The notes: a model not told the origin generated them from the sequence alone. Counted from the first letter of the stretch, positions 11,527 to 40,440 are shown. The stretch: 64,000 bases of DNA from an uncultured Chitinophagales bacterium (GCA_963991145.1 CAXDOZ010000001.1:6617-70616); one strand, 5' to 3'. A program made the numbers and translations.

Positions 11527-12381
11527 ATGGAAGCAGAAAAGATACAATCCTGGGATCGTGAAATCAAATCTACAAAGGGATTACTAGATATAAACCTGGG
11601 TGAAATTTGGAGGTATAGAGACCTTCTTTGGCTGTTTGTACGAAGAGACTTTGTCGCAATGTACAAGCAGACGATTCTGGGTCCGATCTGGTTTTTTATA
11701 CAACCGCTTTTAACCACCATTACATTCACAATAATATTCGGTCGTTTAGCTAAGATAAGCACTGACAGTATTCCGCCCTTAGCTTTCTATTTGGCAGGGG
11801 TCACTCTTTGGAACTACTTTGCCGATTGTATTGTAAAGACCTCAAACACATTTACTATAAATGCCAACATCTTCGGAAAGGTCTATTTCCCAAGAATGAT
11901 TGTCCCTTTATCAGTAGTGGTCTCCAATTTGTTAAAGCTAGGAGTCCAGCTAATTCTCTTTATCGCTGTATGGGGATATTATTACTCACAGGGAAGCATT
12001 AGCCCTACCTGGGCCCTTGTAATGCTTCCTTTTTTGATTTTGATTATGGCAGGACTGGGGCTGGGCTCGGGTATCCTGATTAGTTCGCTTACTACTAAGT
12101 ATAGGGATCTTCAGTTTTTGGTGCAATTTGGGGTTCAGCTTCTAATGTATGGATCACCAGTAGTTTTCCCTTATTCTGTTGCGAAAGGAACAAAGTTTGA
12201 AATTCTATTGCAGATCAATCCTGTGACTGGGGTGATTGAAGCATTTAGATATGCTACTCTGGGAACAGGAGAGCTAAGCATGTCATTATTGGCTTACAGT
12301 GTTGTGTTCATGATTATCCTACTCTTTGCAGGTGTTGTTTCCTTCAATAAAGTAGAGAAGAATTTCATGGATACTGTTTAA
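11527..12381 (+). CDS. wzm: ABC-2 type polysaccharide/O-antigen export permease (Wzm)
   Basis: 284 aa with 6 predicted TM segments. The N-terminal signature is 'EIWRYRDLLWLFVRRDFVAMYKQTILGPIWFFIQP'. The ATPase gene follows directly. Confidence 0.9.
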   Translation: MEAEKIQSWDREIKSTKGLLDINLGEIWRYRDLLWLFVRRDFVAMYKQTILGPIWFFIQPLLTTITFTIIFGRLAKISTDSIPPLAFYLAGVTLWNYFADCIVKTSNTFTINANIFGKVYFPRMIVPLSVVVSNLLKLGVQLILFIAVWGYYYSQGSISPTWALVMLPFLILIMAGLGLGSGILISSLTTKYRDLQFLVQFGVQLLMYGSPVVFPYSVAKGTKFEILLQINPVTGVIEAFRYATLGTGELSMSLLAYSVVFMIILLFAGVVSFNKVEKNFMDTV

Positions 12382-12397
12382 ATCGATCAAGCTTAAG

Positions 12398-13702
12398 ATG
12401 TCAGAAATTGCTTTAGATATAAAAAACCTGTCCAAACAGTATCGACTTGGATTAGTAGGCGTCAGAACTCTGAGTGATGACCTAAAGCGATTCTACTATA
12501 AGATCAGAGGAAAGGAAGATCCTTTCCGATTAGTTGGAGATGAAAATGATAGAACTTCAGTTGGGGGAGATTATGTTTGGGCCTTGCGCGACATAAATCT
12601 CAGTATTTCAAAAGGAGAAGTTGTTGGAATTATTGGAAGGAATGGTGCAGGGAAATCCACTCTTCTGAAGATCTTATCCCAGGTTACAGGACCTACCGAG
12701 GGCTCGATCAAGGTAAAAGGAAGAATATCGTCTCTTTTAGAAGTTGGTACGGGCTTTCATCCTGAACTTACCGGTAAGGAGAATGTCTATCTGAATGGAG
12801 CAATCCTTGGGATGGATAGAAAAGAGATTGCTGCGAAGTTTGATGCAATAGTTGATTTTGCAGGGATCAGGAAGTATATCGATACGCCAACTAAGCGATA
12901 TTCAAGCGGAATGAAAGTTAGACTTGGATTTGCTGTGGCTGCATTTCTCGAGCCAGACATCATGATCGTAGATGAGGTACTCGCTGTAGGTGATGCGGAG
13001 TTTCAAAGAAAAGCAATTGCGAAAATGAGAGAGATCAGCAAGCAAAAGGATCGCACTGTTCTTTTTGTAAGCCACAATATGAACTCGATCAGGAATCTTT
13101 GCAGCAGAGGAGTCCTGTTAGAAATGGGGCAGGTGAAACTTGATGGAGATGTAGATACAATTGTATCTCACTACTTATCTGCAAACTCCACTTCAGAGGA
13201 TAGATCTCAGATTCAACGAACTGGAATAGGTCAGATCAAGATCACAGGAATGAAAATTCTTGATGATCAGGAAAGAGAGATTGATCAATTAATCTCAGGG
13301 GATAAGATTTCTCTTCAATTTGCTTTTGAGAATAATGACCCAACTATCAATTCATCTGAGTTCATCTTTAGTCTGCAGATACGAGATGAGTTTGGTAGTC
13401 CAATCGCCTCCTATATTTCAGATGAGATGAAGATTTCATTCCAGGGCGAAAAGATCCCTCCTACCGGTATAATTGTAGTTGATATACCTAGTTTGATGCT
13501 AAGAGGTGGTAAGTATATCGTAAAAACCAGGATAAATCTCAAAGAAACCGGTTTCAAGCATATGCAGGATGAGATTAATAATCTTGGAGATCTAATTGTT
13601 TTACCTGGAGATCATTGGGATGTAGGCAAGGATAATCGAACTGGGCACCAGGCTCTGTTAGAAGGATCCATCTCAATCAAGGAGAATGCGGACTCTAATT
13701 GA
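12398..13702 (+). CDS. wzt: ABC polysaccharide export ATP-binding protein (Wzt) with a ~180-aa C-terminal extension (Wzt_C-like glycan-cap-binding domain)
   Basis: 434 aa with Walker A 'GRNGAGKST', ABC signature 'YSSGMKVRLGFA' and Walker B 'IMIVDEVLAVGD'. Residues ~255-434 (nt ~13160-13699) extend beyond the NBD, as in the Wzt proteins of ABC-dependent O-antigen systems. Confidence 0.9.
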   Translation: MSEIALDIKNLSKQYRLGLVGVRTLSDDLKRFYYKIRGKEDPFRLVGDENDRTSVGGDYVWALRDINLSISKGEVVGIIGRNGAGKSTLLKILSQVTGPTEGSIKVKGRISSLLEVGTGFHPELTGKENVYLNGAILGMDRKEIAAKFDAIVDFAGIRKYIDTPTKRYSSGMKVRLGFAVAAFLEPDIMIVDEVLAVGDAEFQRKAIAKMREISKQKDRTVLFVSHNMNSIRNLCSRGVLLEMGQVKLDGDVDTIVSHYLSANSTSEDRSQIQRTGIGQIKITGMKILDDQEREIDQLISGDKISLQFAFENNDPTINSSEFIFSLQIRDEFGSPIASYISDEMKISFQGEKIPPTGIIVVDIPSLMLRGGKYIVKTRINLKETGFKHMQDEINNLGDLIVLPGDHWDVGKDNRTGHQALLEGSISIKENADSN

Positions 13703-14498
13703 TAAATATCTGGTAGATCAAAAGAGGTCAATTCTTGAGGGGGTAAGATATACAGCCATTGTCTCCACAGGTCGCACGGGCACAAAGTTCCTGGGGAATT
13801 CATTCTCCCATATACCTTATGTTCTCAGCATTCACGAGCCTAAACCAGTTCTGAATGATGTTGGTAGAGATCTTACTGTGGGTAAATTAAATTCGGTTCA
13901 GGTCCAAAAGAGATTCTTAAATGGCCGACAACAAATTATAAAGGAAGCAAAAGGAAATAAGGTCAATCATATAATTGAATCGAATGGAGGCCTTACCTTT
14001 TTATTGGATGAACTGAATTCAATTATTCCTGACTTTAAGGTCATTCATATAATTAGAGATCCATTTGACATGATCTCATCTGGGGTTTCACGCATGGATA
14101 ATCAAAACGAGCAGCGATACTCAAAGGACTCCAATTGGTTATTCAAGACTCGGGATTATCCCAATGACCCTAATTTTCGCAACTGGAACTCTTTAGATAT
14201 CTATGAGCGCTTTGCATGGATATGGCAGTTTAAAAACCAGCACTTATCTGAATGGTGTGAGTCAAACGAGAATGGTATTTCAGTAAAGTTTGAAGAGATA
14301 TTTCATTCGGGATCTGCATGGTCACAGATTTTAAGTTTTCTAGACCTTGAATATTTCGATTTGTCGAATGAAAAGAAGTTTAAGAACTCAAATGAAGTTC
14401 AATTTGCTGATGATAGATCAACCTGGCCTTCTGCAAGGAAAGAGAAAGTTAGGGCCCTGATAGAGAGTCTCGCCAGGAAATTTGACTACAAGATCTGA
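13686..14498 (+). CDS. PAPS-dependent sulfotransferase (1 of 4; tandem paralogue A)
   Basis: 270 aa with a 5'-PSB-like P-loop 'IVSTGRTGTKFLGNSF', a 3'-PB-like 'VIHIIRDPFDMISS' and 'VKFEEIF'. The ATG overlaps the wzt 3' end by 17 nt. Confidence 0.8.
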   Translation: MRTLIDKYLVDQKRSILEGVRYTAIVSTGRTGTKFLGNSFSHIPYVLSIHEPKPVLNDVGRDLTVGKLNSVQVQKRFLNGRQQIIKEAKGNKVNHIIESNGGLTFLLDELNSIIPDFKVIHIIRDPFDMISSGVSRMDNQNEQRYSKDSNWLFKTRDYPNDPNFRNWNSLDIYERFAWIWQFKNQHLSEWCESNENGISVKFEEIFHSGSAWSQILSFLDLEYFDLSNEKKFKNSNEVQFADDRSTWPSARKEKVRALIESLARKFDYKI

Positions 14499-14499
14499 C

Positions 14500-15348
14500 A
14501 TGAAAGGACTGAAGTCAATTTTTAATTTGTTTAGTAATTCATCATCTGACTCATTTGATGATATTGACTATAAATGTATAGTTAGCTCGGGGAGAACCGG
14601 GACTCAGTTTTTTGGACAATTCTTTGATCATTTCTACGAGAACCTGATTTCTAGGCATGAACCTAGGCCTGACCTGTTCAACATTTTTATCGAGAAATAC
14701 AGGAATAAGGCTGGGACTGAAGAATTGGTGACCTTTCTCAGGAAGGATAGGCTTGCTTTAGTAAATGAGTGTAGGAAATCTCCTTCACAGGTTTTGATAG
14801 AAAGTAATCCTAATGCCAGTTTACTGATTCCGGAGCTTAAACTGACTTTCCCAAGTCATAAATTTTTGTGGATTGTTAGAGATCCAAAAACTTATTTGAA
14901 ATCAGCCTATTCTAAATCTCCTGATGGATCGGGGGAGATGATGTTTTATGGAGAGAATGATCATCGGGATAGGCTGAAACCATCAGATCTGACAGAGTCA
15001 GAAAACGTAGATTGGGATCGCTTTGACCGATTTCAAAAGATATGCTGGTATTGGAATGCGATTAATAAGATTCTATATTCCAACCTTAAGGATGATAACA
15101 ATTGCTTGATGCTTAGGTATGAGGACCTTTTTAGTAAAGAAGATAACTTGCATTACCTTTTGAAGGTTCTCGATTTTTTTGAACTAGATCATTCAGAAAT
15201 AGATCTGGACAGAGTTAATTCAAGAATGTTGGTGCCAAGCAATCAAACTAAATTCAGTATGATAAGATCATACGATGATTGGGATAAAAATAAAACAGAC
15301 TCATTTGAAGCCTTAACTTCTGAAATGAGAAGTATTTTAAACTATTAG
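14500..15348 (+). CDS. PAPS-dependent sulfotransferase (2 of 4; tandem paralogue B)
   Basis: Motifs 'IVSSGRTGTQFFGQFF', 'LWIVRDPKTYLKSAYS' and 'LRYEDLF'. It is colinear with the upstream paralogue ('HEPKP/HEPRP', 'IESNGG/IESNPN'). The ORF track starts at TTG 14482. I prefer ATG 14500, which lies 1 nt after the upstream stop. Confidence 0.8.
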   Translation: MKGLKSIFNLFSNSSSDSFDDIDYKCIVSSGRTGTQFFGQFFDHFYENLISRHEPRPDLFNIFIEKYRNKAGTEELVTFLRKDRLALVNECRKSPSQVLIESNPNASLLIPELKLTFPSHKFLWIVRDPKTYLKSAYSKSPDGSGEMMFYGENDHRDRLKPSDLTESENVDWDRFDRFQKICWYWNAINKILYSNLKDDNNCLMLRYEDLFSKEDNLHYLLKVLDFFELDHSEIDLDRVNSRMLVPSNQTKFSMIRSYDDWDKNKTDSFEALTSEMRSILNY

Positions 15349-15350
15349 AA

Positions 15351-16334
15351 ATGAAAGTTCTTGTTACCGGAGCAGATGGGTTTATTGGAAGCCATTTAGT
15401 TGAAGAATTATTAGATGCTGGATATGAGGTAAAAGCATTCGCATATTATAATTCATTTAATAGCTGGGGTTGGTTAGACACACTTCCGAAAGAGAAGTTG
15501 GACCAAATAGAAATTTTTACTGGAGATATAAGAGACCCAAATGGGGTTAAGACTGCAATGCAAGGAGTTGATCAGGTCTTCCACTTAGCTGCCCTGATTG
15601 CCATTCCATTCAGTTATCACAGTCCTGACAGTTATGTTGATACGAATGTGAAAGGGACACTCAATGTTCTTCAGGCAGGAAGAGATTTAGGACTTGATAG
15701 AATTTTGGTTACTTCTACATCTGAAGTTTATGGAACAGCACAGTTTGTTCCAATTACCGAAGAACACCCAAAACAGGGTCAATCGCCATATTCAGCAACT
15801 AAGATCGGAGCTGATGTATTGGCCGATTCCTTTTTCAGAAGTTTTGACCTGCCAATAACAATTGTTAGGCCCTTTAATACCTACGGTCCCCGACAATCTG
15901 CAAGAGCAGTTATCCCAACAATCATTTCACAACTCCTAAATGAAATGGATGAGATCAAGTTAGGAGACTTGACGCCTACTCGTGACCTTCTTTATGTAAA
16001 AGATACTGCGAGAGGTTTTATTGAGATCTCTAAATCAAATTCTTTGATCGGACAGGAGTGTAATATTGCTACAAACTCTGAGATCAGTATTGGAGATCTT
16101 GCACAGAATCTAATCGATCAAATCCGGCCTCAGGCGAAAATTATTCAAGACGAACAAAGGCTCAGGCCAGGTAAAAGTGAGGTTTTTAGGCTTTTTGGAA
16201 GTAATGCCAGGATCCTGGAGAATACTGATTGGAAGCCTGAATATGATTTGACAAAAGGATTAGCTGAAACAATAGAATGGTTCTCAAATTCAGAGAACTT
16301 GAAAGCCTACAAAGCTCATATCTACAATGTCTAA
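15351..16334 (+). CDS. NAD-dependent sugar-nucleotide 4,6-dehydratase/epimerase (SDR), LegB-like
   Basis: 327 aa with Rossmann motif 'VLVTGADGFIGSHL' and catalytic 'SPYSATKIGAD' (YxxxK). It resembles the dehydratase that pairs with a DegT aminotransferase in legionaminic-acid-type cassettes. Confidence 0.75.
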   Translation: MKVLVTGADGFIGSHLVEELLDAGYEVKAFAYYNSFNSWGWLDTLPKEKLDQIEIFTGDIRDPNGVKTAMQGVDQVFHLAALIAIPFSYHSPDSYVDTNVKGTLNVLQAGRDLGLDRILVTSTSEVYGTAQFVPITEEHPKQGQSPYSATKIGADVLADSFFRSFDLPITIVRPFNTYGPRQSARAVIPTIISQLLNEMDEIKLGDLTPTRDLLYVKDTARGFIEISKSNSLIGQECNIATNSEISIGDLAQNLIDQIRPQAKIIQDEQRLRPGKSEVFRLFGSNARILENTDWKPEYDLTKGLAETIEWFSNSENLKAYKAHIYNV

Positions 16335-17472
16335 TTCAGATGTAATAGAATTCATTAGGGAACTCTACAATGAACCAGATGGATTCATTCCTTTACATAT
16401 TCCACGATTTCGTGGGAGAGAGAAGGAGTATTTAATGAATTGCATTGATTCCACCTTTGTTTCAAGTGTGGGTGAGTATGTAAATCAATTTGAAGAAGAT
16501 ATTGCTTGCATTACAGGCGCCAGGTATGCCATTGCAGTTGTAAATGGCACAAATGCCTTACAGGTAGCCTTACGGCTGGCAGGTGTAAAAACAGAAGAAG
16601 AAGTTATAACACAGGCATTTAGCTTTGTCGCTACAGCCAATGCAATTTCCTATCTGGGAGCAAAACCAGTTTTTATTGATGTCGACAGGCAGCGAATGGG
16701 TATGTCGGCAGAAGCCCTAAGATCTTTTCTACAAGAGAGCACCGAGAGGAAAAATGGTCAGGTTTTTAATAAGAAGACAGGACGCCGAATTGCCGCTATA
16801 GTTCCTATGCACACCTTTGGCTTTGCTGCAGAGATTGACAGTTTAGTTTCTATTGCCAAGGAATGGGGTATTCCTTTAGTTGAAGATGCAGCGGAATCAC
16901 TTGGAACTACTTACAAGGGAAAACATACTGGAACTTTTGGTCTCTTTGGAACGATGAGTTTTAATGGGAATAAGATTGTTACTTGTGGTGGCGGTGGTGT
17001 AATAATTACCGATAGTGAAGAGCTTGCTAAAAAAGCCAAGCATCTTACAACTACTGCAAAGGTTCCTCACAAATGGGCATATGAGCATGATATGATGGGC
17101 TACAATTTTAGAATGCCCAATCTGAATGCAGCTTTGGCATGTGCTCAGCTTGAAATGCTTGATGAATTTTTAGCTAGCAAGAAGAAACAGGCAGATCAAT
17201 ATTCTAACTTTTTCTCTCAAACAGAGGATTACTCCTTTATCGGTGAGCAAGAGAATTCATCATCTAACTTCTGGTTGATGACGATTATTCTTTCTGATAA
17301 AACACACAGAGATAAGTTTCTCAAAGAAACCAATGAAGCAGGAGTAATGACGCGCCCAGCCTGGAATCTTCTCAACACTCTGGATATGTATAGAGACTGC
17401 CAATCTGATGATTTGCTAAATTCAAATTGGTTGTTCGAAAGGGTGGTGAATGTCCCAAGTTCTGTAGTTTAG
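16327..17472 (+). CDS. DegT/DnrJ/EryC1-family PLP aminotransferase (LegC/PglE-like sugar 4-aminotransferase)
   Basis: 381 aa with 'AIAVVNGTNALQVAL', 'VEDAAESLG' and the lysine region 'SFNGNKIVTCGGGGVIITD'. Overlaps the upstream gene by 8 nt. Confidence 0.85.
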   Translation: MSNSDVIEFIRELYNEPDGFIPLHIPRFRGREKEYLMNCIDSTFVSSVGEYVNQFEEDIACITGARYAIAVVNGTNALQVALRLAGVKTEEEVITQAFSFVATANAISYLGAKPVFIDVDRQRMGMSAEALRSFLQESTERKNGQVFNKKTGRRIAAIVPMHTFGFAAEIDSLVSIAKEWGIPLVEDAAESLGTTYKGKHTGTFGLFGTMSFNGNKIVTCGGGGVIITDSEELAKKAKHLTTTAKVPHKWAYEHDMMGYNFRMPNLNAALACAQLEMLDEFLASKKKQADQYSNFFSQTEDYSFIGEQENSSSNFWLMTIILSDKTHRDKFLKETNEAGVMTRPAWNLLNTLDMYRDCQSDDLLNSNWLFERVVNVPSSVV

Positions 17473-17475
17473 AGT

Positions 17476-18126
17476 ATGGCAAAAGATCTCTATATCATTG
17501 GTGCTGGCGGAATGGCAAAAGAAATCCTTCCTTTGGTAAATGATATAAACTACTCTGAGAACCTTTATAGATTAAAGGGATTTATTGATAAGTCTTCAGA
17601 ACTAAAGGAATTAAAAATTGGGGGTTCTAAGTTTCCTGTCTTAGAGGAGGATTTTTTTCTTGAAGAATTCAGGGGGTTTGATGTTGCATGTTGTCTAGGG
17701 ATTGGAGCAAGTCCTTATAACCCATCAATCATTAAGAGATTTGAAGATTTTGAGTTTCCTAATCTGGTCCATCCAAATGTAACTGGTGACCGAAAAAGTA
17801 TAAAGATTGGTAAAGGGAATCTGTTTTGCTCCAATTCTCAGTTTACAGTTAATTTATCAGGTGGCGATTTTAACATCTTTAATCGTGGCAGTCAGGTTGG
17901 CCATGATGTAGAAATTGGAAGTTTTAATCTATTTAATCCTGGCTCTATAGTTTCTGGATCGGTTTCAATTGGTGATTCAAATTTGATTGGGGCTGGATCG
18001 GTTATTCTCCAAAACTTAAAGATTAAGTCTAATTCTATTCTTGGAGCAGGAGCTGTTTTGACCAAAGATCTGGAATCAAATGTAATGGCTATGGGAGTTC
18101 CTGCAAAAGTTGTCAATAATCCTTGA
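17476..18126 (+). CDS. NeuD/PglD-family sugar N-acetyltransferase (left-handed beta-helix)
   Basis: 216 aa. The N-terminal 'LYIIGAGGMAKEILPLV' is followed by hexapeptide repeats ('IGSFNLFNPGSIVSGSVSIGDSNLIGAGSVIL'). Confidence 0.8.
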   Translation: MAKDLYIIGAGGMAKEILPLVNDINYSENLYRLKGFIDKSSELKELKIGGSKFPVLEEDFFLEEFRGFDVACCLGIGASPYNPSIIKRFEDFEFPNLVHPNVTGDRKSIKIGKGNLFCSNSQFTVNLSGGDFNIFNRGSQVGHDVEIGSFNLFNPGSIVSGSVSIGDSNLIGAGSVILQNLKIKSNSILGAGAVLTKDLESNVMAMGVPAKVVNNP

Positions 18127-18136
18127 AAAGATAAAA

Positions 18137-18805
18137 ATGAAAAATGTAGTTGTTGTGGCTGTCCATCCCGATGATGAGACTCTAGCTTGTGGAGGAACCT
18201 TATTGCGCCACAAGAATGAGGGAGATAAAGTCCATTGGATTATTGTAACAAATATTTCTGAAGATCAGGGCTTCTCTAAAGAGAAAGTAAAGTCAAGACA
18301 GGAGGAAATAAATCGAGTGGCAAGAGAATTTAATTTTGATTCAGTAGTGAAGTTTGATTTCCCAACAACTCAACTTGAAGAGTTTTCAAAGGGAAAGTTG
18401 ATTGCCTCTCTTTCAAAAGCCTTTCAGGATATTAAACCCAATGTAGTTTACCTTCCTTTCCCAGGGGACGCTCATAGCGAACACAAGTTTACATTTGAAT
18501 GTGCATTTGCATGTACGAAAACTTTTAGGTACCCATTTGTTGAGGAAGTGTATGCAATGGAAACTATAAGTGAAACGGAGTTTGGGCCCTCTTTTCAGAA
18601 CCAAGTATTTAACCCAAATTATTTTGTAGACGTAACAGAATATTTGCAAAGGAAGGTTGAGATCTTCTCAATTTTTGAATCTGAAATTGGAGAACATCCG
18701 TTCCCTCGTAGTAAAAGGAATCTTAAGGCTCAAGCCACTTTCAGAGGTGCTCAATCAGGTTTCGAATATGCTGAATCATTTATGTTGCTGAAACAAAGGA
18801 GATAA
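18137..18805 (+). CDS. PIG-L/LmbE-family N-acetyl-sugar deacetylase
   Basis: Signature 'VVVVAVHPDDETLACGGTLL' plus a later 'GDAHSEH'. The ORF track starts at TTG 18110. ATG 18137 places the HPDDE motif at the usual N-terminal position. Confidence 0.8.
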   Translation: MKNVVVVAVHPDDETLACGGTLLRHKNEGDKVHWIIVTNISEDQGFSKEKVKSRQEEINRVAREFNFDSVVKFDFPTTQLEEFSKGKLIASLSKAFQDIKPNVVYLPFPGDAHSEHKFTFECAFACTKTFRYPFVEEVYAMETISETEFGPSFQNQVFNPNYFVDVTEYLQRKVEIFSIFESEIGEHPFPRSKRNLKAQATFRGAQSGFEYAESFMLLKQRR

Positions 18806-19692
18806 TGAAAGCTATTTTTATCGGCACTGTAGAATTTAGCTTAAGAGCTCTTGAGGAGCTAATTAAGAGTGATTTAGATTTAGTGGGGGTGATCACAGCT
18901 GAAACAAGTTCCATCAATTCAGATTTTGTGGATTTAGAGCCAATTTGTCAGAAACATTGTATCCCAGTTAGAAAGACAAATAATGTTAATTCTCAGGAAT
19001 CTCTGGATTGGATTTCTTTAAAGAAGCCTGATGTTATTTTTTGTTTTGGATGGTCCAGATTATTAAAGAAACAATTGCTTGATATTCCCTTGCATGGGGT
19101 GATTGGCTTCCATCCTGCTGCCTTACCAAAGAATAGAGGTAGACATCCAATTATCTGGGCTCTTTTCCTTGGATTACAAGAAACTGGCACTACATTTTTT
19201 AGGATGGATGAATTTGCTGACAGTGGGGATATCTTATCCCAAAGTATTATTGAAATTGATCCAGCAGATGATGCAGGTTCTCTTTATGCCAAGATTGTAG
19301 ATACTGCATTGATACAGATAAGGTCATTTGTTCCAGATTTGATTTCAGGAAATGCTTCTTTCCAAAATCAAAGTGACAAGGGGTCCAATAATTGGAGAAA
19401 AAGAGCTATTCCAGATGGAAGAATAGATTTCCGTATGAGTATTACGGCAATCTACAATCAGGTGAGAGCATTGACTAAGCCTTACGTTGGTGCTCATATT
19501 GAATTCAAAGGCAAGGCCTATCAGGTTTGGAAAGTCAGAATCGAACGATCAGTAGAAGATAATATTGAACCTGGGAAAATCTTAAAAGTCAATGAGTCAG
19601 AGATTTTAGTAAAGGCCTATGATGGCGGAGTTTGGCTAATAGACTATGATGTTTCATTTTTACCTAAAGAAGGTGAATATATATTGCCATGA
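18805..19692 (+). CDS. Fmt-like (N10-formyl-THF dependent) sugar N-formyltransferase
   Basis: 295 aa with 'MKAIFIGTVEFS', the catalytic region 'GVIGFHPAALPKNRGRHPIIWAL' and a C-terminal Fmt_C-like beta domain. The start overlaps the upstream stop (TAATG). Confidence 0.75.
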   Translation: MKAIFIGTVEFSLRALEELIKSDLDLVGVITAETSSINSDFVDLEPICQKHCIPVRKTNNVNSQESLDWISLKKPDVIFCFGWSRLLKKQLLDIPLHGVIGFHPAALPKNRGRHPIIWALFLGLQETGTTFFRMDEFADSGDILSQSIIEIDPADDAGSLYAKIVDTALIQIRSFVPDLISGNASFQNQSDKGSNNWRKRAIPDGRIDFRMSITAIYNQVRALTKPYVGAHIEFKGKAYQVWKVRIERSVEDNIEPGKILKVNESEILVKAYDGGVWLIDYDVSFLPKEGEYILP

Positions 19693-20774
19693 TAGATAAC
19701 ACAGCACGCGTTAGATCTATAAGTATTGATTGCAGAGAAAGTCTCCTTTCAGCTATAAAGCAAATGGATAAGGAGTCATGCAAACTTCTCTTAGTGAAGA
19801 AAAATGGAGAATTCTTTTCCCTTATCAGTATTGGCGATATTCAAAGAGCCATATTGAATGAAGTCGACCTTGGGGATTCTATCGAGAATAATATCAGACC
19901 AAAAATACATGTTTGCTCAAGCTCCGATTCCGAGATCGAGATTAGAGAATCAATGAAAAAGTTCCGATCTGAGTTTATGCCAATCCTAAATTCTGGAGGG
20001 AAATTGACTCAGGTAGTCTTTTGGGATGAAGTATTTGAACAAAGTTTTAATCGTCATTCAAATACTGAATTTGACCTACCAGTAGTGATTATGGCAGGGG
20101 GAAAAGGAACTAGACTACAACCCATCACCAATATTATTCCTAAGCCGTTAGTTCCCTTGGGTGAAAAGCCGATTATGCAGGTCATAATTGATGATTTCGT
20201 AAATCTTGGGGTTTCTAAGTTCTACGCTTCCGTCAACTACAAATCAGAAATGATTGAGCAATTTTTCGACTCTATTCCGGAACGAAATTATAGTATCGAA
20301 TACTTTAAGGAAGATCAACCTTTAGGAACAGCAGGAAGTTTATCCTTGTTAAAGGATAAAATTTCCACCACCTTCTTTGTGAGTAATTGTGATATTCTTA
20401 TTGACCAGGATTATTCTGAGGTTCTCAAATTTCATAGAGAAAAAAAGAATGAGTTAACAGCTATGGCAGCCTTGAGGCATTATAAAATTCCATATGGCAC
20501 AATGGATATTGGAGAAGGAGGTCAACTGTTAAGACTAAGTGAAAAGCCTGAGCTTACCTTCACAGTAAACGCAGGTGTTTATATTCTAGAACCTCATCTC
20601 ATAGACGAGATTCCTGCGGGGGAATTTTTTCACATAACACACCTAATGGAACAAATTATGGCAAGAGATGGCCGTGTAGGAGTTTTTCCTGTAAGTGAAA
20701 AGAGTTGGATGGATATAGGTGAATGGAAAGAGTATGACAGAACCCAGGAACTTTTTAAACGTTGGGATCGATGA
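19689..20774 (+). CDS. CBS-domain sugar-phosphate nucleotidyltransferase (PtmE-like)
   Basis: 361 aa. An N-terminal CBS pair region (~aa 1-115) is followed by the NTP-transferase signature 'VVIMAGGKGTRLQPITNIIPKPLVPLGEKPIM'. ATGA overlap with the upstream gene. Confidence 0.8.
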   Translation: MIDNTARVRSISIDCRESLLSAIKQMDKESCKLLLVKKNGEFFSLISIGDIQRAILNEVDLGDSIENNIRPKIHVCSSSDSEIEIRESMKKFRSEFMPILNSGGKLTQVVFWDEVFEQSFNRHSNTEFDLPVVIMAGGKGTRLQPITNIIPKPLVPLGEKPIMQVIIDDFVNLGVSKFYASVNYKSEMIEQFFDSIPERNYSIEYFKEDQPLGTAGSLSLLKDKISTTFFVSNCDILIDQDYSEVLKFHREKKNELTAMAALRHYKIPYGTMDIGEGGQLLRLSEKPELTFTVNAGVYILEPHLIDEIPAGEFFHITHLMEQIMARDGRVGVFPVSEKSWMDIGEWKEYDRTQELFKRWDR

Positions 20775-22006
20775 AAGTGCTTTTCCTTGGTAGTAATCGC
20801 TTTGAAACAGTTAGAATTATTGCTGAGCACATCAAATCAAAGTATCCAGATTGGCAAATTGATGCTGTTGATCTAGTCCTTTTGCGTGAGGGAATGGATA
20901 TAGAACCTTTTAATAATAATTTGATCTCTACTGAATGGACAAAAGGTGAAAGGAGCACATTATTTCATTTTAGATTCCTTCTTAGAAAAGGGAAATTCTT
21001 TGGGGCTATAAAGAATGCTATAATAGACAGGAAACATGGTTTCTTTAATTCAATAAAGCACCTGTCAGAGTCCATTATGTTTGAGGAGAAAGCAGGTCAG
21101 TTGTTTTCGACTTATGACTTTTTTCATTTTCATTTCATAAGCCGAAAGGCTAGTAATTGGTTGAATTTCATTCCTTTAGAAAGTAAAGTAATTGCTTCCT
21201 TTTGGGGGTCAGATGCTTACAGAGTTCCAGATGAACCTACAATTTTTGCCCAAAGAGAGATCTTGAACCGGTCTAATATTGCCACTTGCCATTTTAACCA
21301 GATGCTTGAGGAAATCTTGATGAATTTAGGTGAAGAGTACAGGCCTAAATTCAAAACCATGCTTTTTGGTATGAAAGATTGGATGCGGGATAAAATTCTC
21401 CATTTTGATCAAATGAAGGGAAGGGATGCCTTTTTCCAACGATACTCTATCCCGTCAGGAAAAATTGCTATTCAGATTGCATATAGCAAAGCGAGAATAA
21501 TGCAACACCTTAAAGTGTTAAAAGGACTCGCTCCTTTGTCAGATGATGCTAAGGAACGATTTCACCTTGTCATTCCACTTACTTATGGCGAAGTTCATGA
21601 TTGGAATGAGTATAGATCAGAGATTGAGAAGGAAGCAGAGAAATCTGGTATATCCTTCACTTGCCTCTTTGATTATATGACTGATGATGAGGTTCTTGAA
21701 ATGGAAAGTGCTTGCGAAATCTTTATCAATTCGAGAACAACTGATGCCCTGAATGGAACAATGATGGAGCATTTTACTTTGTCTCATTTAGTTATTTCTG
21801 GGGGCTGGCTAAAGTATCAGATTTTAAAAGACTATGGCCTTTATATGCCAACATTTGATGAGTTTCAGGAACTGCCTGCTATCTTGGAATCATATCTAAT
21901 TAAACGGGAAGAATTAAGTGCAAAGTTTGAGTCTAACTCAAGAATTATTTCCGAAAGTTTTGTTTCATCAGCCTGGAGAGATCATTGGTTAAGTTTGTAT
22001 GACTAA
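20771..22006 (+). CDS. Putative glycosyltransferase, weakly WecF/GT56-like (tentative)
   Basis: About 411 aa. 'FHFHFISRKASNWLNFIPLESKVIASFWGSDAYR' resembles E. coli WecF 'FFHGQFNPTLWLALLSG..FWHIWGADLYE' as I recall it. A later 'HLVIPLTYGE..' region resembles WecF 'KVVVPMGYPP'. ATG 20771 (ATGA overlap) is preferred over the track's TTG 20762. Confidence 0.4.
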   Translation: MKVLFLGSNRFETVRIIAEHIKSKYPDWQIDAVDLVLLREGMDIEPFNNNLISTEWTKGERSTLFHFRFLLRKGKFFGAIKNAIIDRKHGFFNSIKHLSESIMFEEKAGQLFSTYDFFHFHFISRKASNWLNFIPLESKVIASFWGSDAYRVPDEPTIFAQREILNRSNIATCHFNQMLEEILMNLGEEYRPKFKTMLFGMKDWMRDKILHFDQMKGRDAFFQRYSIPSGKIAIQIAYSKARIMQHLKVLKGLAPLSDDAKERFHLVIPLTYGEVHDWNEYRSEIEKEAEKSGISFTCLFDYMTDDEVLEMESACEIFINSRTTDALNGTMMEHFTLSHLVISGGWLKYQILKDYGLYMPTFDEFQELPAILESYLIKREELSAKFESNSRIISESFVSSAWRDHWLSLYD

Positions 22007-25200: not shown

Positions 25201-26099
25201 TTTTCGGACTCTCAAATGTTTCCTATTGCGATGATAGCGCCGTTAAGTTTGAAGAGTTATGCGAACTCGAGTACTTAGAGGGGATTTTTTCAAATTTGAG
25301 ATCAGACCTTGGGAGTACATTTGAAGGCTATGATTTTCAAATTTATTCCGCAAATAATACAAAAGGACCAACTCAAAAGACAAGTTCAAAGAAGACTGTA
25401 TTGATCTACATTTCAGATGAGACAATGCGAATCCCTGAACACCTGTCGGATAAGTACCATGCCATCTTTAAGTGTTACATCCCTGTTGATAGAATAGGAA
25501 ATATATTCTCACTTCCACTAGGATATGTGAATGGTAGAAAACAAAGTGATAGAGTTGAAATACTAAATAGAGATAACAATGTTTTCTTCTCTGGAAACCT
25601 CAATGAGAACAGATTCCCATTGTATCAGCATTTTAATTTATTCCGCTATTTACCTACCTGGGTTTTTACCAGATTATATTATAGGATCAAATCAAAATTA
25701 AAGTTTAATTACTCCGACTACTTCCCCAACTCCTATATAAACTTCACACACAAGTTTAACTCTGGTTTAAGTCCAGAGGAGTATACCAGGTACCTCTATA
25801 ACAGTAAGATCATTTTATGTCCCAAAGGATTTACTAGTGCGGAGACCTTTAGACATTATGAAGCAATGCAATCCGGCGGCATTGTCATTTCCCAGAGACT
25901 ACCAGATGTATTCTATTACAAGAACAGTCCAATAATTCAAATCGACTCCTGGGCGCAACTAGACGAGAAGGTAGGTGAATTGATTGGTGATGATGACAGG
26001 ATGAAAAAGATTCAACAGCAGACTTATAAGTGGTGGGATGAGGTTTGCTCAGAAAAAGCTGTTTCGAAGTATATTGCACAATCGCTTTCCCAATTGTAA
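25197..26099 (+). CDS. Exostosin-like (GT47-like) glycosyltransferase
   Basis: 300 aa with 'NVFFSGNLNENRFPLYQHF' and the exostosin C-terminal pattern 'SKIILCPKGFTSAETFRHYEAMQSGGIVIS'. ATGA overlap with the upstream gene. Confidence 0.6.
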   Translation: MIFGLSNVSYCDDSAVKFEELCELEYLEGIFSNLRSDLGSTFEGYDFQIYSANNTKGPTQKTSSKKTVLIYISDETMRIPEHLSDKYHAIFKCYIPVDRIGNIFSLPLGYVNGRKQSDRVEILNRDNNVFFSGNLNENRFPLYQHFNLFRYLPTWVFTRLYYRIKSKLKFNYSDYFPNSYINFTHKFNSGLSPEEYTRYLYNSKIILCPKGFTSAETFRHYEAMQSGGIVISQRLPDVFYYKNSPIIQIDSWAQLDEKVGELIGDDDRMKKIQQQTYKWWDEVCSEKAVSKYIAQSLSQL

Positions 26100-26104
26100 C
26101 ACCT

Positions 26105-26971
26105 GTGAATCCTATATTCTTATTAGCAGTATCCCCTAGATCAGGAAGTAACTACCTCTTCAGGTTACTATCTCGTCACCCAGATATTTGTCCGACGGGA
26201 ATCACAGGAGAGGACTTTCTTTTACGTTACAGTGATTCCCTAATCAACCATATTGATAAAGTTTCTGGCAATTGGAAAGAGAGTTGGGGGAATAGCAAAC
26301 AGGAACTTCAGGATTGCATGGCAGAAGGATGGATCAATTTTCTTCTCCCCGAGAAGATCCGAGATGATCAAAGATTAATAACTAAGACCCCAATGCCCTA
26401 TGGGGCGGAAAACTTCTTCCGCCTGTTTCCCAAAGGACAACTTCTTATCATAATCAGAAATGGTCCAGATGCCGTGGAATCATACCAAAAGACATTTGAT
26501 AAGAGCTTTGAAGCCTCAGTTAATAATTGGGCTCTTGGAGCCAGGACGATTCTTGAGTTAAGAAAGAATCACGCTGCTCTGGAGAATAAAAGCTTTAAGA
26601 TCGTCAGGTATGAGGATCTGTATTCAAATACTTCTGATAGCATAAAGGAGATCTTTAGCTTCCTCAATCTTGACCCTTCAAAATTTGACATGGAAGAAGC
26701 CCTTTCACAAGGAGTTATAGGCTCATCATCCCAAAGAGACAAGGGAGAAGAAGTTTCATGGAAGCAGGAAGAGGTTAAATCTCCGGACTTTGACCCAACG
26801 AGCAGGGCAAAAAACTGGACCAATGCAGAGAGATCAAGGTTTGATTATCTGGCGGGAACTGAACAAGCAGAATTGGGATATTCAAAGCTTTTGGAAAGGA
26901 AGTCACCTTTGTTTTTGATACAGAATTGGGCAAAAAGTGCATTCATTCGCTTCGGCCTCTCTAAAGCTTGA
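26105..26971 (+). CDS. PAPS-dependent sulfotransferase (3 of 4)
   Basis: Motifs 'FLLAVSPRSGSNYLFRLL' (5'-PSB), 'LLIIIRNGPDAVESY' (3'-PB) and 'KIVRYEDLYSN'. The track start TTG 26045 overlaps the upstream gene by 55 nt. GTG 26105, 5 nt after the upstream stop, puts the P-loop at the N-terminus. Confidence 0.8.
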   Translation: MNPIFLLAVSPRSGSNYLFRLLSRHPDICPTGITGEDFLLRYSDSLINHIDKVSGNWKESWGNSKQELQDCMAEGWINFLLPEKIRDDQRLITKTPMPYGAENFFRLFPKGQLLIIIRNGPDAVESYQKTFDKSFEASVNNWALGARTILELRKNHAALENKSFKIVRYEDLYSNTSDSIKEIFSFLNLDPSKFDMEEALSQGVIGSSSQRDKGEEVSWKQEEVKSPDFDPTSRAKNWTNAERSRFDYLAGTEQAELGYSKLLERKSPLFLIQNWAKSAFIRFGLSKA

Positions 26972-31311: not shown

Positions 31312-32418
31312 ATGGCAGACCGAATCCGAGTGCTTGTATATCCAAACTGGAAACGTGGAAGCGTTTACATGAATAAGCTGGAGGAAGCTGTTGAGGAGAA
31401 TGATATTGGCCTGGACTACACGAGTTTTCACGGAGCGATCTTCCCTCTTTCTAAGCAGTACATGAAGGGCTATCATTCAGTTCTTCAAATTCATTGGGTT
31501 AGTGTGCTCTTTGCCGCAGAAGTCAGGAACCCTGTTAAATTTTGGATAAGATACATTCTGGCATATCTCGACATCTGGTACGTTAGAAATATCCTCTCTG
31601 CCAAAATTGTATGGACAGTTCACAATCTTTATTCCCATGATGCAATCAGGAAAAACCTGGACCTTCGAGCGCGTAGATTTCTTGCTAAGCAATCTGATAT
31701 CCTTTTGTTACATGGACCCAGCGCTATCCCTCTGGTGACAGAAGCCTATAAAGTCGATAAGTCGAAATGCGTTTGTATTCCTCATGGAAATCAAAAAGGG
31801 GCCTTCCCCATGGAGATCTCCAAATTCGACGCAAGAGAAAAGCTCCAGATCGGTCAAAATAAAAAGGTGCTTCTGTTCTTCGGAACTTTAAGAAAGTATA
31901 AAGGGGTTGAGGAATTGATAGAGGCTTTTAAGTCAATTGATGATGAGAACCTCTTCCTGCTGATTGCAGGAAAGTGCCGAGACGAGTCTTACAGAAAAGA
32001 ATTAATGGGAATGGCAGATGATCGCACCTTGATCACTGACTCCTTTGTTCCGATTGATGAGGTTCAGGTATATATGGCTGCCGCGGATATTGTGGTCTTA
32101 CCGTTTAAAGAGATCCTCACTTCAGGATCGCTCTTGCTGGCAATGACCTTTGGAAAAATGATTGTGGCACCGAGGATGGGTACACTCCCGGATTATCTTC
32201 TGCCAGAAGGAGGTATTCTTTATGATGAGAAGAATGAAAACTTGAAAATTGCCTTGAACAGGGCAATGGAAATGGATACTGAGAAAGCGGGTGACTTTAA
32301 TAAAGAGAAAGTTGATCTATTTGACTGGGACAGAATTGGCGACTCAGTTGCCGATTGGTATAGAAAGCTGATCGATTCAAATAACCCTCATCCGAAAAAG
32401 AAGAATTGGTTCCAGTGA
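31312..32418 (+). CDS. GT4-family glycosyltransferase
   Basis: 368 aa with 'KKVLLFFGTLRKYKGVEELIEAF', 'LLIAGKC' and 'ADIVVLPFKEILTSGSLLLAMTFGKMIVAPRMG'. Confidence 0.85.
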   Translation: MADRIRVLVYPNWKRGSVYMNKLEEAVEENDIGLDYTSFHGAIFPLSKQYMKGYHSVLQIHWVSVLFAAEVRNPVKFWIRYILAYLDIWYVRNILSAKIVWTVHNLYSHDAIRKNLDLRARRFLAKQSDILLLHGPSAIPLVTEAYKVDKSKCVCIPHGNQKGAFPMEISKFDAREKLQIGQNKKVLLFFGTLRKYKGVEELIEAFKSIDDENLFLLIAGKCRDESYRKELMGMADDRTLITDSFVPIDEVQVYMAAADIVVLPFKEILTSGSLLLAMTFGKMIVAPRMGTLPDYLLPEGGILYDEKNENLKIALNRAMEMDTEKAGDFNKEKVDLFDWDRIGDSVADWYRKLIDSNNPHPKKKNWFQ

Positions 32419-33365
32419 TTGAAGGATTGAAATATCGGGTCTCTAAAATTCAGGGGAAAATTGAAGCCAAAAAGATCGCTTCAGAGTTCAAAGACCAGAG
32501 TTTGAGAACTCCCCCGGTTTTTATTTTGGGTGCCCCAAGAACTGGCAGTACGATCCTATACCAATTACTAAGTTCACAGGGCGATTTTTTTTATTTCAAT
32601 AATTATCTGGCTAAGAATCATCAAACTCCTGCAAAAGCTTTAAAGACCTTTGCAAGTAAAGGAGGACAATTTAAGCACGACTCTTTTAACTCCAAATTCG
32701 GAGAGACTTCAGGAGACAATGCCCCAAGTGAGGCTGGATACTTTTGGTACAGATGGATCCCAGAAGGACATCATGAATTGAAAAAATCCGATCTAAGTAA
32801 AGATGACCTGGACCAGATCTCGTCCTACTTTAAATTCTTTGAATCCCAATCTCAACTCCCGATCCTCATTAAGAACCTAAACATGGGATTGAGGATGGAT
32901 CTGATAAGGTCAATTCACCCGCAAGCAAGAATCATTCACATTGTAAGGAATACCCTTGACAACTCAAGGTCAATACTGAAGGGAAGAATTAAGTATGGGA
33001 ATTCAGAGGATTTTTGGTTTGGATCAAAACCCAATGAATGGCAGGACTGGCAAAATGGCTCAGTAGCCGAGCAAATCGTGGGACAGATTGAGTGGATGAA
33101 TAATTCTATCCTGAAGGGTGCCAAACAGTTAGGTGATGAGTGTTATTTGCGAATCCGATATGAGGATCTGGTGAAGGACACTGATTCCACGATCAAAGAG
33201 ATCAAGAACTTTTTAAAGAATGGAAACATAGAAATTGAGCATGGATTTCCATCTTTGAGCAAAGAATCCCAAAATGAAGAGCAGCTTGAGCTCTCTGATT
33301 TTGATAAAGAAGTAATTGAATTGGTTAAGAGTAAGGGTACAGAAAGCAATACCCTTTATCTATAG
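32415..33365 (+). CDS. PAPS-dependent sulfotransferase (4 of 4)
   Basis: Motifs 'VFILGAPRTGSTILYQLL' (5'-PSB), 'ARIIHIVRNTLDNSRSIL' (3'-PB) and 'LRIRYEDLVKD'. The track start is TTG 32406. GTG 32415 gives a GTGA overlap with the upstream stop. Confidence 0.8.
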   Translation: MIEGLKYRVSKIQGKIEAKKIASEFKDQSLRTPPVFILGAPRTGSTILYQLLSSQGDFFYFNNYLAKNHQTPAKALKTFASKGGQFKHDSFNSKFGETSGDNAPSEAGYFWYRWIPEGHHELKKSDLSKDDLDQISSYFKFFESQSQLPILIKNLNMGLRMDLIRSIHPQARIIHIVRNTLDNSRSILKGRIKYGNSEDFWFGSKPNEWQDWQNGSVAEQIVGQIEWMNNSILKGAKQLGDECYLRIRYEDLVKDTDSTIKEIKNFLKNGNIEIEHGFPSLSKESQNEEQLELSDFDKEVIELVKSKGTESNTLYL

Positions 33366-39345: not shown

Positions 39346-40440
39346 ATGAAACGCATCCTTACTTGCGTTGGAACTCGCCCCAACCTCATTAAGATCTCTA
39401 AGCTTCAAAGCTGTATTTCCAATTACGATAATCTAGAGCATAAGCTTCTGCATACCGGTCAGCACTTTGATCATCAAATGAATGAGATCTTCTTTAAACA
39501 GCTTGGGATGAAGGAGCCTGATGTCTTTCTGAATATTCAGGGCTCCGGGCAAATTCAGGTGATCGCAGAGATCATGAAGGCTTTTGAGAAGGAGCTTCTG
39601 GAGATCAAACCTGATCTGGTATTGGTGCCAGGAGATGTGAATAGTTCTCTTGCCTGTGCACTCGTTGCCCAGCGACATGGAATTCCGGTTGGGCACATTG
39701 AGAGCGGATTGCGCTCAGGTGATATGACTATGCCCGAAGAGGTAAACAGGATCTTGATCGATGAGCTGAGTTCGATCTTTTTCATCACAGAGAAATCAGG
39801 TCAGGAAAATCTGGAGAAGCTTGGGAAAGATAAGAGCAGTCTTGTCTTCACGGGAAATACAATGATTGACAGCCTTGAATTAAGTAAGGAAATGATTGCT
39901 CAGTCATCTGTATTGGATGAACTGAAGCTAAAGCCTAAAGAATATGCTTTGGTGACTTTTCACCGTCCGCAGAATGTAGATAGACCTGAGGATCTTCAAA
40001 AGGTCATCGACATTCTCAAAATGGCTGCAAACAAGATCCATGTTGTCTTTCCAATGCACCCAAGAACGAGAAAGAACCTGGAGCAATTCGGCATGCAGGC
40101 AGAGCTGGACCACCCCAACATAACCACAGTTGGACCGCTCGGTTACATTGATTTTATGTCTTTGATCCAGAATTCAAGACTTGTACTTACTGATTCAGGA
40201 GGTGTTCAGGAAGAGACTACCTATCTGGAAGTTCCATGTTTGACCGTGCGTCCAAACACTGAAAGACCTATCACCATTGAGCTTGGAACCAATACTTTGG
40301 TAAATCTGGATGTCGATAGAATAAGCTCATTGATTGACGATATCATCCAAGGATCTTATAAGTCGGGAAGCATTCCTCCAATGTGGGATGGGAATGCCAC
40401 TGAACGTATGGTAAAAGCCATAAATGATTTCCTTTCCTAA
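39346..40440 (+). CDS. UDP-N-acetylglucosamine-type 2-epimerase (WecB/WbpI family)
   Basis: 364 aa with 'ILTCVGTRPNLIKISKL', 'HIESGLRSGDMTMPEEVNRILID' and 'LTDSGGVQEETTYLEVPCLTVRPNTERP'. Confidence 0.9.
   Translation: MKRILTCVGTRPNLIKISKLQSCISNYDNLEHKLLHTGQHFDHQMNEIFFKQLGMKEPDVFLNIQGSGQIQVIAEIMKAFEKELLEIKPDLVLVPGDVNSSLACALVAQRHGIPVGHIESGLRSGDMTMPEEVNRILIDELSSIFFITEKSGQENLEKLGKDKSSLVFTGNTMIDSLELSKEMIAQSSVLDELKLKPKEYALVTFHRPQNVDRPEDLQKVIDILKMAANKIHVVFPMHPRTRKNLEQFGMQAELDHPNITTVGPLGYIDFMSLIQNSRLVLTDSGGVQEETTYLEVPCLTVRPNTERPITIELGTNTLVNLDVDRISSLIDDIIQGSYKSGSIPPMWDGNATERMVKAINDFLS

Follow-up and report, generated by a model that had tools for sequence, protein, structure and literature searches.

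Cassette organization and proposed pathway

The DNA analyzed here is a stretch of 64,000 nucleotides from an uncultured Chitinophagales bacterium (GCA_963991145.1 CAXDOZ010000001.1:6617-70616), which corresponds to C1:6617-70616 of an assembly that is 89% complete and consists of 256 contigs, and this whole stretch is referred to as the window. It contains a cassette of seven coupled genes, encoding a LegB-type dehydratase, a LegC-type aminotransferase, a NeuD-like acetyltransferase, a PIG-L deacetylase, an Fmt-like formyltransferase, a PtmE-like guanylyltransferase and a GT4-like glycosyltransferase (Table 1). On balance, we favor the interpretation that these genes constitute the first half of the GDP-route legionaminic acid (Leg) pathway as an end in itself and that they yield a formylated GDP-hexose donor. 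An earlier reading made from the sequence alone (the sequence-only reading) had proposed that the pathway ends at a diamino-trideoxyhexose, and this proposal is supported, as no LegG, LegI or LegF was found in the window, its flanks or the assembly. Direct observation extends to which genes are present, to their orthology and synteny, and to the lack of LegG, LegI and LegF among the assembled contigs.

In the proposed pathway, PtmE would make GDP-GlcN(Ac), LegB would dehydrate the GDP-sugar at C4/C6, LegC would then aminate C4, and the NeuD/LegH-like enzyme would acetylate the 4-amine to give GDP-2,4-diacetamido-2,4,6-trideoxy-D-glucose (GDP-diNAcBac). The PIG-L deacetylase would strip the 2-N-acetyl group and the Fmt-like enzyme, which lacks the canonical catalytic asparagine (Asn-less Fmt), would re-acylate the freed amine with formyl from N10-formyl-tetrahydrofolate. 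The GT4-type transferase encoded downstream would take the resulting GDP-2-formamido-4-acetamido-2,4,6-trideoxyglucose as its direct donor for a polysaccharide exported by Wzm/Wzt. Four elements of this scheme are inferred: that the nucleotide is GDP, which nitrogen undergoes editing, that the incoming group is formyl, and that the GDP-sugar is the form edited. LegB from T. forsythia is known to accept GDP-GlcNAc only, and PtmE is GTP-specific (PMC5378307).

The six open reading frames (ORFs) of the sequence-only reading do exist on the plus strand, with the junctions given there (-8, +3, +10, -1 and -4 nucleotides) when PIG-L starts at position 18137; the first value reflects the overlap of the legC start with the legB end by 8 nucleotides. 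The longest PIG-L frame opens at TTG 18110, and the form in the protein collection starts at 18137 and has 222 residues. The motifs quoted in that reading were visible in alignments, whereas CBS in gene 6 was matched weakly, the N-terminal 130 residues containing one repeat that scores 19.9 bits on PF00571 (cut-off 24).

LegB and LegC exceed the cut-offs of their NCBIfam equivalog models (Table 1). A profile search of the whole assembly returned LegB as the single match above the TIGR04180 cut-off. The NeuD-like protein matches PglD_N (30 bits, cut-off 23.4) and scores 146 bits on TIGR03570 (cut-off 160.8), and its best relatives are encoded by the gene after LegC in the full cassettes L025 and L023. 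In gene 6, the NTP_transferase domain spans residues 133-350, the closest solved structures are mannose-1-P guanylyltransferases, and length and position agree with those of the PtmE genes of other cassettes; the protein is 51-54% identical to PtmE of two loci without nonulosonate genes, G250 and L075, which are described below.

The GT4-like gene overlaps gene 6 by 4 nucleotides and is thereby the seventh coupled gene. A Pfam search of its product gave no match, but the protein model resembles GT4-type GT-B clusters of the Atlas, with TM scores of 0.72-0.78 and feature scores of 0.97-0.99. Its homologue in L075 scores 24.7 bits on PF13477 (Glyco_trans_4_2; cut-off 23.4), and homologues adjoin PtmE or PIG-L in G250 and L075. 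GT4 enzymes use NDP-sugars as donors, and the coupled transferase is presumed to use the GDP-sugar.

Search for LegG, LegI and LegF in the assembled genome

The sequence-only reading had stated that NeuC, NeuB and NeuA homologues are missing from the window, and this was borne out: the window encodes no NeuB and no CTP_transf_3 protein, and its lone Epimerase_2 protein is WecB. This Epimerase_2 gene (39346-40440) was considered as a candidate for LegG and rejected, its score on the wecB model being far above that on NeuC (Table 1). Genes neuB and neuA were also not present immediately outside the window, where the flanks on C1 encode housekeeping functions (cell-shape and ribosomal genes), and the genome-wide search for neuB/legI, legG and neuA that had been suggested with the reading detected no Leg-type form in the 89%-complete assembly.

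Genuine LegI, LegG and LegF proteins from four full cassettes were employed as tblastn queries and reached three genes only, namely a NeuB (34% identity), WecB (22-24%) and KdsB (24-40%, partial alignments). LegG was not found in the assembly, its sole Epimerase_2 gene being the WecB gene that the LegG queries reached, and LegF was not found either, the sole CTP_transf_3 gene of the assembly coding for KdsB (303 bits on KdsB models). LegI was likewise not found in the assembly; the sole NeuB is a short orphan of about 290 residues on contig C31, whose identity to cassette LegI is the 34% given above.

This NeuB (locus L001, C31:3-2239) is SAF-less, is cut by the contig end and is preceded by genes for a short-chain dehydrogenase/reductase (SDR) and a KdsC/KDN-9-P-phosphatase-like HAD protein. 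Orthologues occur in four relatives (57-69% identity, open frames of about 284-297 residues), in whose genomes (97-100% complete) LegB was not found, and in one of them, G007, the orthologue stands alone among housekeeping genes (Mrp-type ATPase, MetK, RNase P). As a candidate for LegI the C31 NeuB was rejected, because of its low identity to LegI, its KDN-9-P-phosphatase-like neighbor and its orthologues in genomes in which LegB was not found. We regard it as having no relation to the cassette of the window. Together with the HAD protein and the SDR it may form a KDN-type route, although the cytidylyltransferase of the assembly is KdsB alone.

Short cassettes in other genomes

In a sample of 400 genomes from the phylum, in which the LegB neighborhoods were mapped over +/-10 kb, LegB was present in 26 and an orthologue of the cassette Fmt in three; in 40 genomes of the same order no Fmt orthologue was detected. 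A NeuB-type synthase was located near LegB at 17 of the 26 loci, 14 of them with LegC and with a LegI scoring 413-510 bits. Five loci combine LegB with a short nucleotidyltransferase and an SDR and have no LegC orthologue, and two were uninformative. The other two, in the Bacteroidota genomes G250 and G380, contain LegB-LegC-NeuD-PtmE without nonulosonate genes.

The short cassettes of G250 and G380 are colinear with the window and have no nonulosonate genes nearby, and the one in G250 continues from PtmE straight into a GT4-like gene. G250 is a single-contig genome of 6.2 Mb from the same class as the source organism, and identities of its LegB, LegC, NeuD, PtmE and GT4 proteins to those of the window are 77, 55, 33, 51 and 23%, respectively. 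Its NeuB-NeuC-...-NeuA block, which includes a canonical Fmt-like gene, is located 1.28 Mb from the cassette, and the NeuB encoded there reaches 197 bits on LegI, compared with 413-510 bits for the LegI proteins of LegC-containing cassettes. The distant block is read as a separate nonulosonate system, although the score of its NeuC (224 bits) does not discriminate. In G380, which is 100% complete by markers, a NeuB gene lies beside genes for a cytidylyltransferase and a KDN-9-P-phosphatase-like HAD protein, and no hydrolyzing epimerase was found in this genome. Neither short cassette has the PIG-L/Fmt pair, so that plain GDP-diNAcBac is the predicted product, whereas the window has the pair. 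Our literature searches found no description of these short cassettes.

A further locus without NeuB, NeuC or NeuA, L075, was found in a Flavipsychrobacter metagenome-assembled genome. It is a Wzm/Wzt locus that shares PIG-L (48% identity), PtmE (54%) and the GT4-like protein with the window, and its first two genes are 53 and 59% identical to Wzm and Wzt of the window. The gene order at L075:8093-13478 is NeuD-GT4-PIGL-WbqC-GNAT-MaoC-PtmE, PIG-L being paired there with other acyl-transfer genes and not with Fmt. LegB has a third context in Bacteroidota, at loci L156, L157, L166, L167 and L168, where it accompanies an SDR and a nucleotidyltransferase. The latter is full-length in L157, whereas it is short and has no CBS part in the other four; none of the five loci has a LegC orthologue or nonulosonate genes, and the arrangement may represent a GDP-6-deoxy-HexNAc route.

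The PIG-L/Fmt pair as an accessory of Leg cassettes

For comparison, 80 loci from species-representative genomes were mapped with phmmer, 58 of them with adequate flanks. Among these 58 PIG-L loci, NeuB was present in 54, PtmE in 52, Epimerase_2 in 46 and CTP_transf_3 in 44. The pair had been taken by the sequence-only reading for an extension of the cassette, but it is no novelty of the window: it often accompanies full Leg cassettes, and what sets the window apart is that no LegG, LegI or LegF was found. The usual gene order, LegB-LegC-NeuD-NeuB-NeuC-Fmt-PIGL-PtmE-NeuA, was observed in Campylobacter concisus, Arcobacter, Virgibacillus, Gramella and a Pelagibacteraceae genome. Orthologues of the window Fmt were present in 32 of the 80 loci, and in these and six further Fmt-positive loci (38/38) Fmt is located directly upstream of PIG-L, adjacent or overlapping, whereas the window has the reversed order PIG-L->Fmt.

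When loci with both an Fmt orthologue and LegC were examined, 25 of 29 proved to have NeuD as a separate gene (20 loci) or, after LegC, an additional canonical Fmt (5 loci). The 4-amine thus has its own acylating enzyme in these loci, suggesting that the Asn-less Fmt probably serves another amine, most plausibly the one freed by PIG-L. By analogy with characterized PIG-L enzymes, the freed amine would be that of the 2-acetamido group derived from GlcNAc, which later becomes N5 of the nonulosonate and would match 5-N-formyl-Leg. Halorubrum sp. PV6 produces 5-N-formyl-legionaminic acid, and its cluster includes a formyltransferase, a deacetylase not being mentioned (PMC6137143). In Ca. Kuenenia stuttgartiensis, whose Leg cluster encodes both enzymes, a deacetylase as well as a formyltransferase, CMP-nonulosonates were described in which one amine is formylated and another is free (preprint 10.64898/2026.04.20.719630). 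The chemistry published for these two organisms would fit an exchange of acetyl for formyl. Literature searches pairing LmbE or PIG-L with legionaminic or nonulosonic returned no paper, and no biochemical characterization of the deacetylase/formyltransferase pair was found in the literature.

Some full Leg cassettes have a second Fmt-like gene at the place usually occupied by NeuD (L006:1554-2444, L017:6088-6972, L029:5516-6442, L034:4849-5742, L054:11739-12659 and L107:12583-13473), and the canonical N-C-H motif is kept in five aligned proteins of those six. As all these loci except L029 have the Fmt/PIG-L pair in addition, a doubly N-formylated nonulosonate is predicted for them. At L108 (G325:C103:6283-9040), the trio NeuC-Fmt-PIGL is isolated: the fetched 17.5 kb contain no LegB, LegC or NeuB, and the LegB of this genome is on another contig.

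Features of the deacetylase and the Asn-less Fmt-like protein

The family search with the window PIG-L collected 2885 proteins at E<=1e-20, the best 120 of them showing 52-64% identity. The metal/base motifs HPDDE and D-x-H-x-x-H are kept in the window protein, H10, D12, D13, E14, D111, H113 and H116 being invariant in the family alignment that includes it, and the protein retains 47 of 51 columns with a family conservation of 90% or more. Beside the metal motifs, the protein departs from 86 relatives at two near-invariant positions, G17A (HPDDETL-G-CGG) and D115E (H-S-D-H). A metagenome scan with the window PIG-L detected relatives at 31-51% identity only, and the contig of the closest homologue, P0002 (64%), was not among them.

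The Fmt-like protein contains both formyltransferase domains (PF00551, 83 bits, cut-off 26.1; PF02911, 56.5 bits, cut-off 21.1), and the structures closest to it are those of Fmt and ArnA. Of the 66 family columns with a conservation of 90% or more, it retains 65. An alignment with 32 orthologues made evident that the Asn of the canonical Asn-His-Asp triad is absent from the window protein and replaced by Gly: where Fmt, ArnA and GART have N-x-H, these proteins have G-[FY]-H-P (Ala or Ser in two), the subfamily pattern being G-[FY]-H-P...N-R-G-R-H-P and the motif of the window protein G-F-H-P. The catalytic His, the Asp and the L-P-x-x-R-G loop are retained. A paralogue of the tRNA-Met formyltransferase, which the sequence-only reading had named as a finding that would speak against it, is not what this gene encodes, the protein scoring 132.4-133.3 bits on TIGR00460 against a cut-off of 201.5, while the true fmt (268.6 bits) is located on contig C65. 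A role as GDP-perosamine formyltransferase for the Gmd branch was considered as well and rejected, as the protein falls in the PIG-L-coupled clade and scores 100-108 bits with Fmt/ArnA structures as compared with 80 bits for 5vyt, the GDP-perosamine enzyme.

Window PIG-L and Fmt both nest among proteins of full cassettes, on long branches. With respect to its origin, the cassette resembles a short LegB-LegC-NeuD-PtmE-GT4 arrangement of the kind seen in G250 that received the PIG-L/Fmt module of full Leg cassettes.

Alternative explanations

Several observations weigh against a formylated GDP-hexose as the end product. The assembly is 89% complete and in 256 contigs, and a LegG/LegI/LegF block could be unassembled; in G250, the 224 bits of the distant NeuC lie within the range of in-cassette LegG proteins (183-565), and a split pathway is possible there. 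The match of the NeuD-like protein falls under its NCBIfam cut-off (TIGR03570), PIG-L differs from its family at two near-invariant sites, G17A and D115E, which could reflect an altered substrate, and Fmt is without the canonical catalytic Asn, so formyl transfer is not certain. Furthermore, the enzymes from Kuenenia and Halorubrum are likened to the window proteins by cluster content, and editing might take place on a lipid-linked glycan instead of the GDP-sugar. The hexose might indeed be the correct end product with PIG-L and Fmt acting once the sugar has been transferred, at the cytoplasmic face, where they would edit the polymer while it is lipid-linked or still growing. Characterized PIG-L relatives deacetylate GlcNAc bound to an aglycone (GlcNAc-malate, chitobiose) and ABC-transporter pathways are generally known to assemble the whole glycan in the cytoplasm. 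However, free-amine and formyl groups are already present on CMP-activated sugars (preprint 10.64898/2026.04.20.719630), and the two genes are placed between sugar-nucleotide genes and not among transferases, so that we consider editing after transfer unlikely. Less probable again is that the cassette feeds a Leg-type nonulosonate, with LegG, LegI and LegF in the unassembled part of about 11% and a CMP-5-N-formyl-7-N-acetyl-Leg-type product. The source genome is incomplete, 54 of 58 PIG-L loci carry NeuB, which is the usual setting of the module, and the LegB cassette and the NeuB/NeuC/NeuA block of G250 are 1.28 Mb apart. Nevertheless, the nonulosonate genes of the comparators are in cis in nearly all cases, tblastn revealed no LegG, LegI or LegF fragment on any contig or contig edge, and the marker-complete G380 has a short cassette and no hydrolyzing epimerase; the distant NeuB of G250 scores far below LegI proteins of cassettes, and a GT4-type transferase, an NDP-sugar user, is coupled to the window cassette.

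A chance ranked just below that is given to the Asn-less Fmt not being a formyltransferase, in which case it would transfer another group or merely bind folate or sugar, leaving a free amine or some other acyl group on the product. The replacement of the triad Asn by Gly (Ala or Ser in two orthologues) extends across the subfamily and every named formyltransferase model scores below its cut-off, but the folate-loop pattern L-P-x-x-R-G persists along with His and Asp, both Pfam formyltransferase domains exceed their cut-offs, and clusters with deacetylase and/or formyltransferase yield formylated nonulosonates (preprint 10.64898/2026.04.20.719630; PMC6137143). That the cassette is a functionless, decaying remnant of a full Leg cluster that underwent deletion of its nonulosonate genes appears very improbable. 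The nesting of window PIG-L and Fmt within full-cassette proteins on long branches would be in line with such a remnant, but all ORFs are intact and translationally coupled, LegB is highly similar to that of G250, the short architecture recurs in other genomes, and decay of the pair is unlikely because nearly all family-conserved residues are kept (47/51 in PIG-L and 65/66 in Fmt).

Comparison with known pathways

The cassette shares PtmE-like, LegB, LegC and PglD/LegH-like proteins in one operon with the GDP-route CMP-legionaminic pathway (C. jejuni PtmE/LegB/LegC/LegH/LegG/LegI/LegF; T. forsythia BFO_1063-1074, PMC5378307), and the T. forsythia cluster, like the window, comes from the Bacteroidota. 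In contrast to that pathway, the window has no LegG, LegI or LegF in cis or in the assembly, has a coupled GT4-type transferase instead, and has PIG-L and Fmt added. Full Leg loci with the pair, such as L017 from Campylobacter concisus, encode proteins that are 44-64% identical to those of the window in the fetched loci, and the logic, one N-acetyl group swapped for formyl, is alike in the Leg clusters of Kuenenia, Halorubrum and loci like L017. Full loci with the pair proceed to a CMP-nonulosonate and always have the order Fmt->PIG-L, whereas the window has PIG-L->Fmt and no nonulosonate genes.

The hexose chemistry of the proposed pathway is also that of the UDP-diNAcBac pathway (PglF/PglE/PglD for N-glycosylation in C. 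jejuni), whose product serves as a glycosyl donor and is not turned into a nonulosonate. This pathway differs in being UDP-linked, in using a membrane dehydratase of the PglF type and in having neither a dedicated nucleotidyltransferase nor N-acyl editing. For the formyltransferase, the N-terminal domain of ArnA, which formylates UDP-Ara4N, is among the nearest characterized sugar-nucleotide formyltransferases (NF005998, 165 bits; PDB 8gjh, 104 bits) and has the same two-domain layout. However, in ArnA the canonical Asn-His-Asp triad is present and a decarboxylase is fused to the domain, whereas the window enzyme has Gly for Asn and is paired with a deacetylase.

Genomic context

The cassette is situated inside a co-directional polysaccharide locus of about 39 kb, from 11527 to about 50254, which contains Wzm/Wzt, four sulfotransferase-like genes, several glycosyltransferases, gmd, two fcl-like genes, WecB and an exosortase (Table 1). 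A sulfotransferase-like gene is likewise present in the homologous locus of G250, downstream of GT4.

Table 1. Genes of the cassette and selected neighbors, in window positions.
Feature	Position	Strand	Evidence
Wzm/Wzt ABC (ATP-binding cassette) exporter, head of the same co-directional polysaccharide locus	11527..13702	+	NCBIfam Wzm/RfbD-like, Wzt/TagH-like
LegB-type NAD-dependent GDP-GlcNAc 4,6-dehydratase	15351..16334	+	TIGR04180 496.5 bits (cut-off 475)
LegC-type pyridoxal phosphate (PLP) aminotransferase, makes 4-amino group	16327..17472	+	TIGR04181 545.5 bits (cut-off 420)
NeuD/PglD/LegH-type hexapeptide N-acetyltransferase, presumed 4-N acetylase	17476..18126	+	PglD_N, Hexapep
PIG-L/LmbE-family zinc de-N-acetylase, 222 residues	18137..18805	+	PF02585 82.8 bits (cut-off 28.2)
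Fmt/ArnA-like formyltransferase, Asn-less subfamily	18805..19692	+	Formyl_trans_N, Formyl_trans_C
PtmE-like sugar-1-phosphate (probably GlcN/GlcNAc-1-P) guanylyltransferase with N-terminal CBS-like region of ~130 residues	19689..20774	+	NTP_transferase
GT-B/GT4-like glycosyltransferase, presumed GDP-sugar user	20771..22006	+	structure matches
Non-hydrolyzing WecB (Epimerase_2, NeuC superfamily)	39346-40440		wecB 307.8 bits vs NeuC 99 bits (cut-off 235.9)
Sulfotransferase-like genes (four)	13686-14498, 14482-15348, 26045-26971, 32406-33365		Pfam Sulfotransfer_3/_1 (two weak)

Implications

The window appears as a natural truncation, in which a pair that is common in Leg clusters across many phyla is kept while all nonulosonate-specific enzymes are missing, and retention of the pair without these enzymes points to a GDP-hexose as its substrate. 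We tentatively extend this, with less confidence than we place in the reading of the window itself, to the proposition that an N-formyl bacillosamine-type GDP-hexose may be a genuine donor in Bacteroidota and that PIG-L and the Asn-less Fmt may edit the GDP-hexose before LegG and LegI in all Leg pathways carrying the module. If true, this would establish in which order the steps of 5-N-formyl-Leg biosynthesis occur, add a new sugar-nucleotide, and define a subfamily of formyltransferases active in the absence of the canonical Asn. The window offers a simple test system for the pair, comprising six enzymes and one sugar-nucleotide. LegB and LegC matches alone should not be equated with a nonulosonate pathway when genomes are annotated. 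To our knowledge, GDP-diNAcBac-type sugars are known as Leg intermediates only, and the cassettes described here suggest that they may serve as end-product donors in some Bacteroidota surface polysaccharides.

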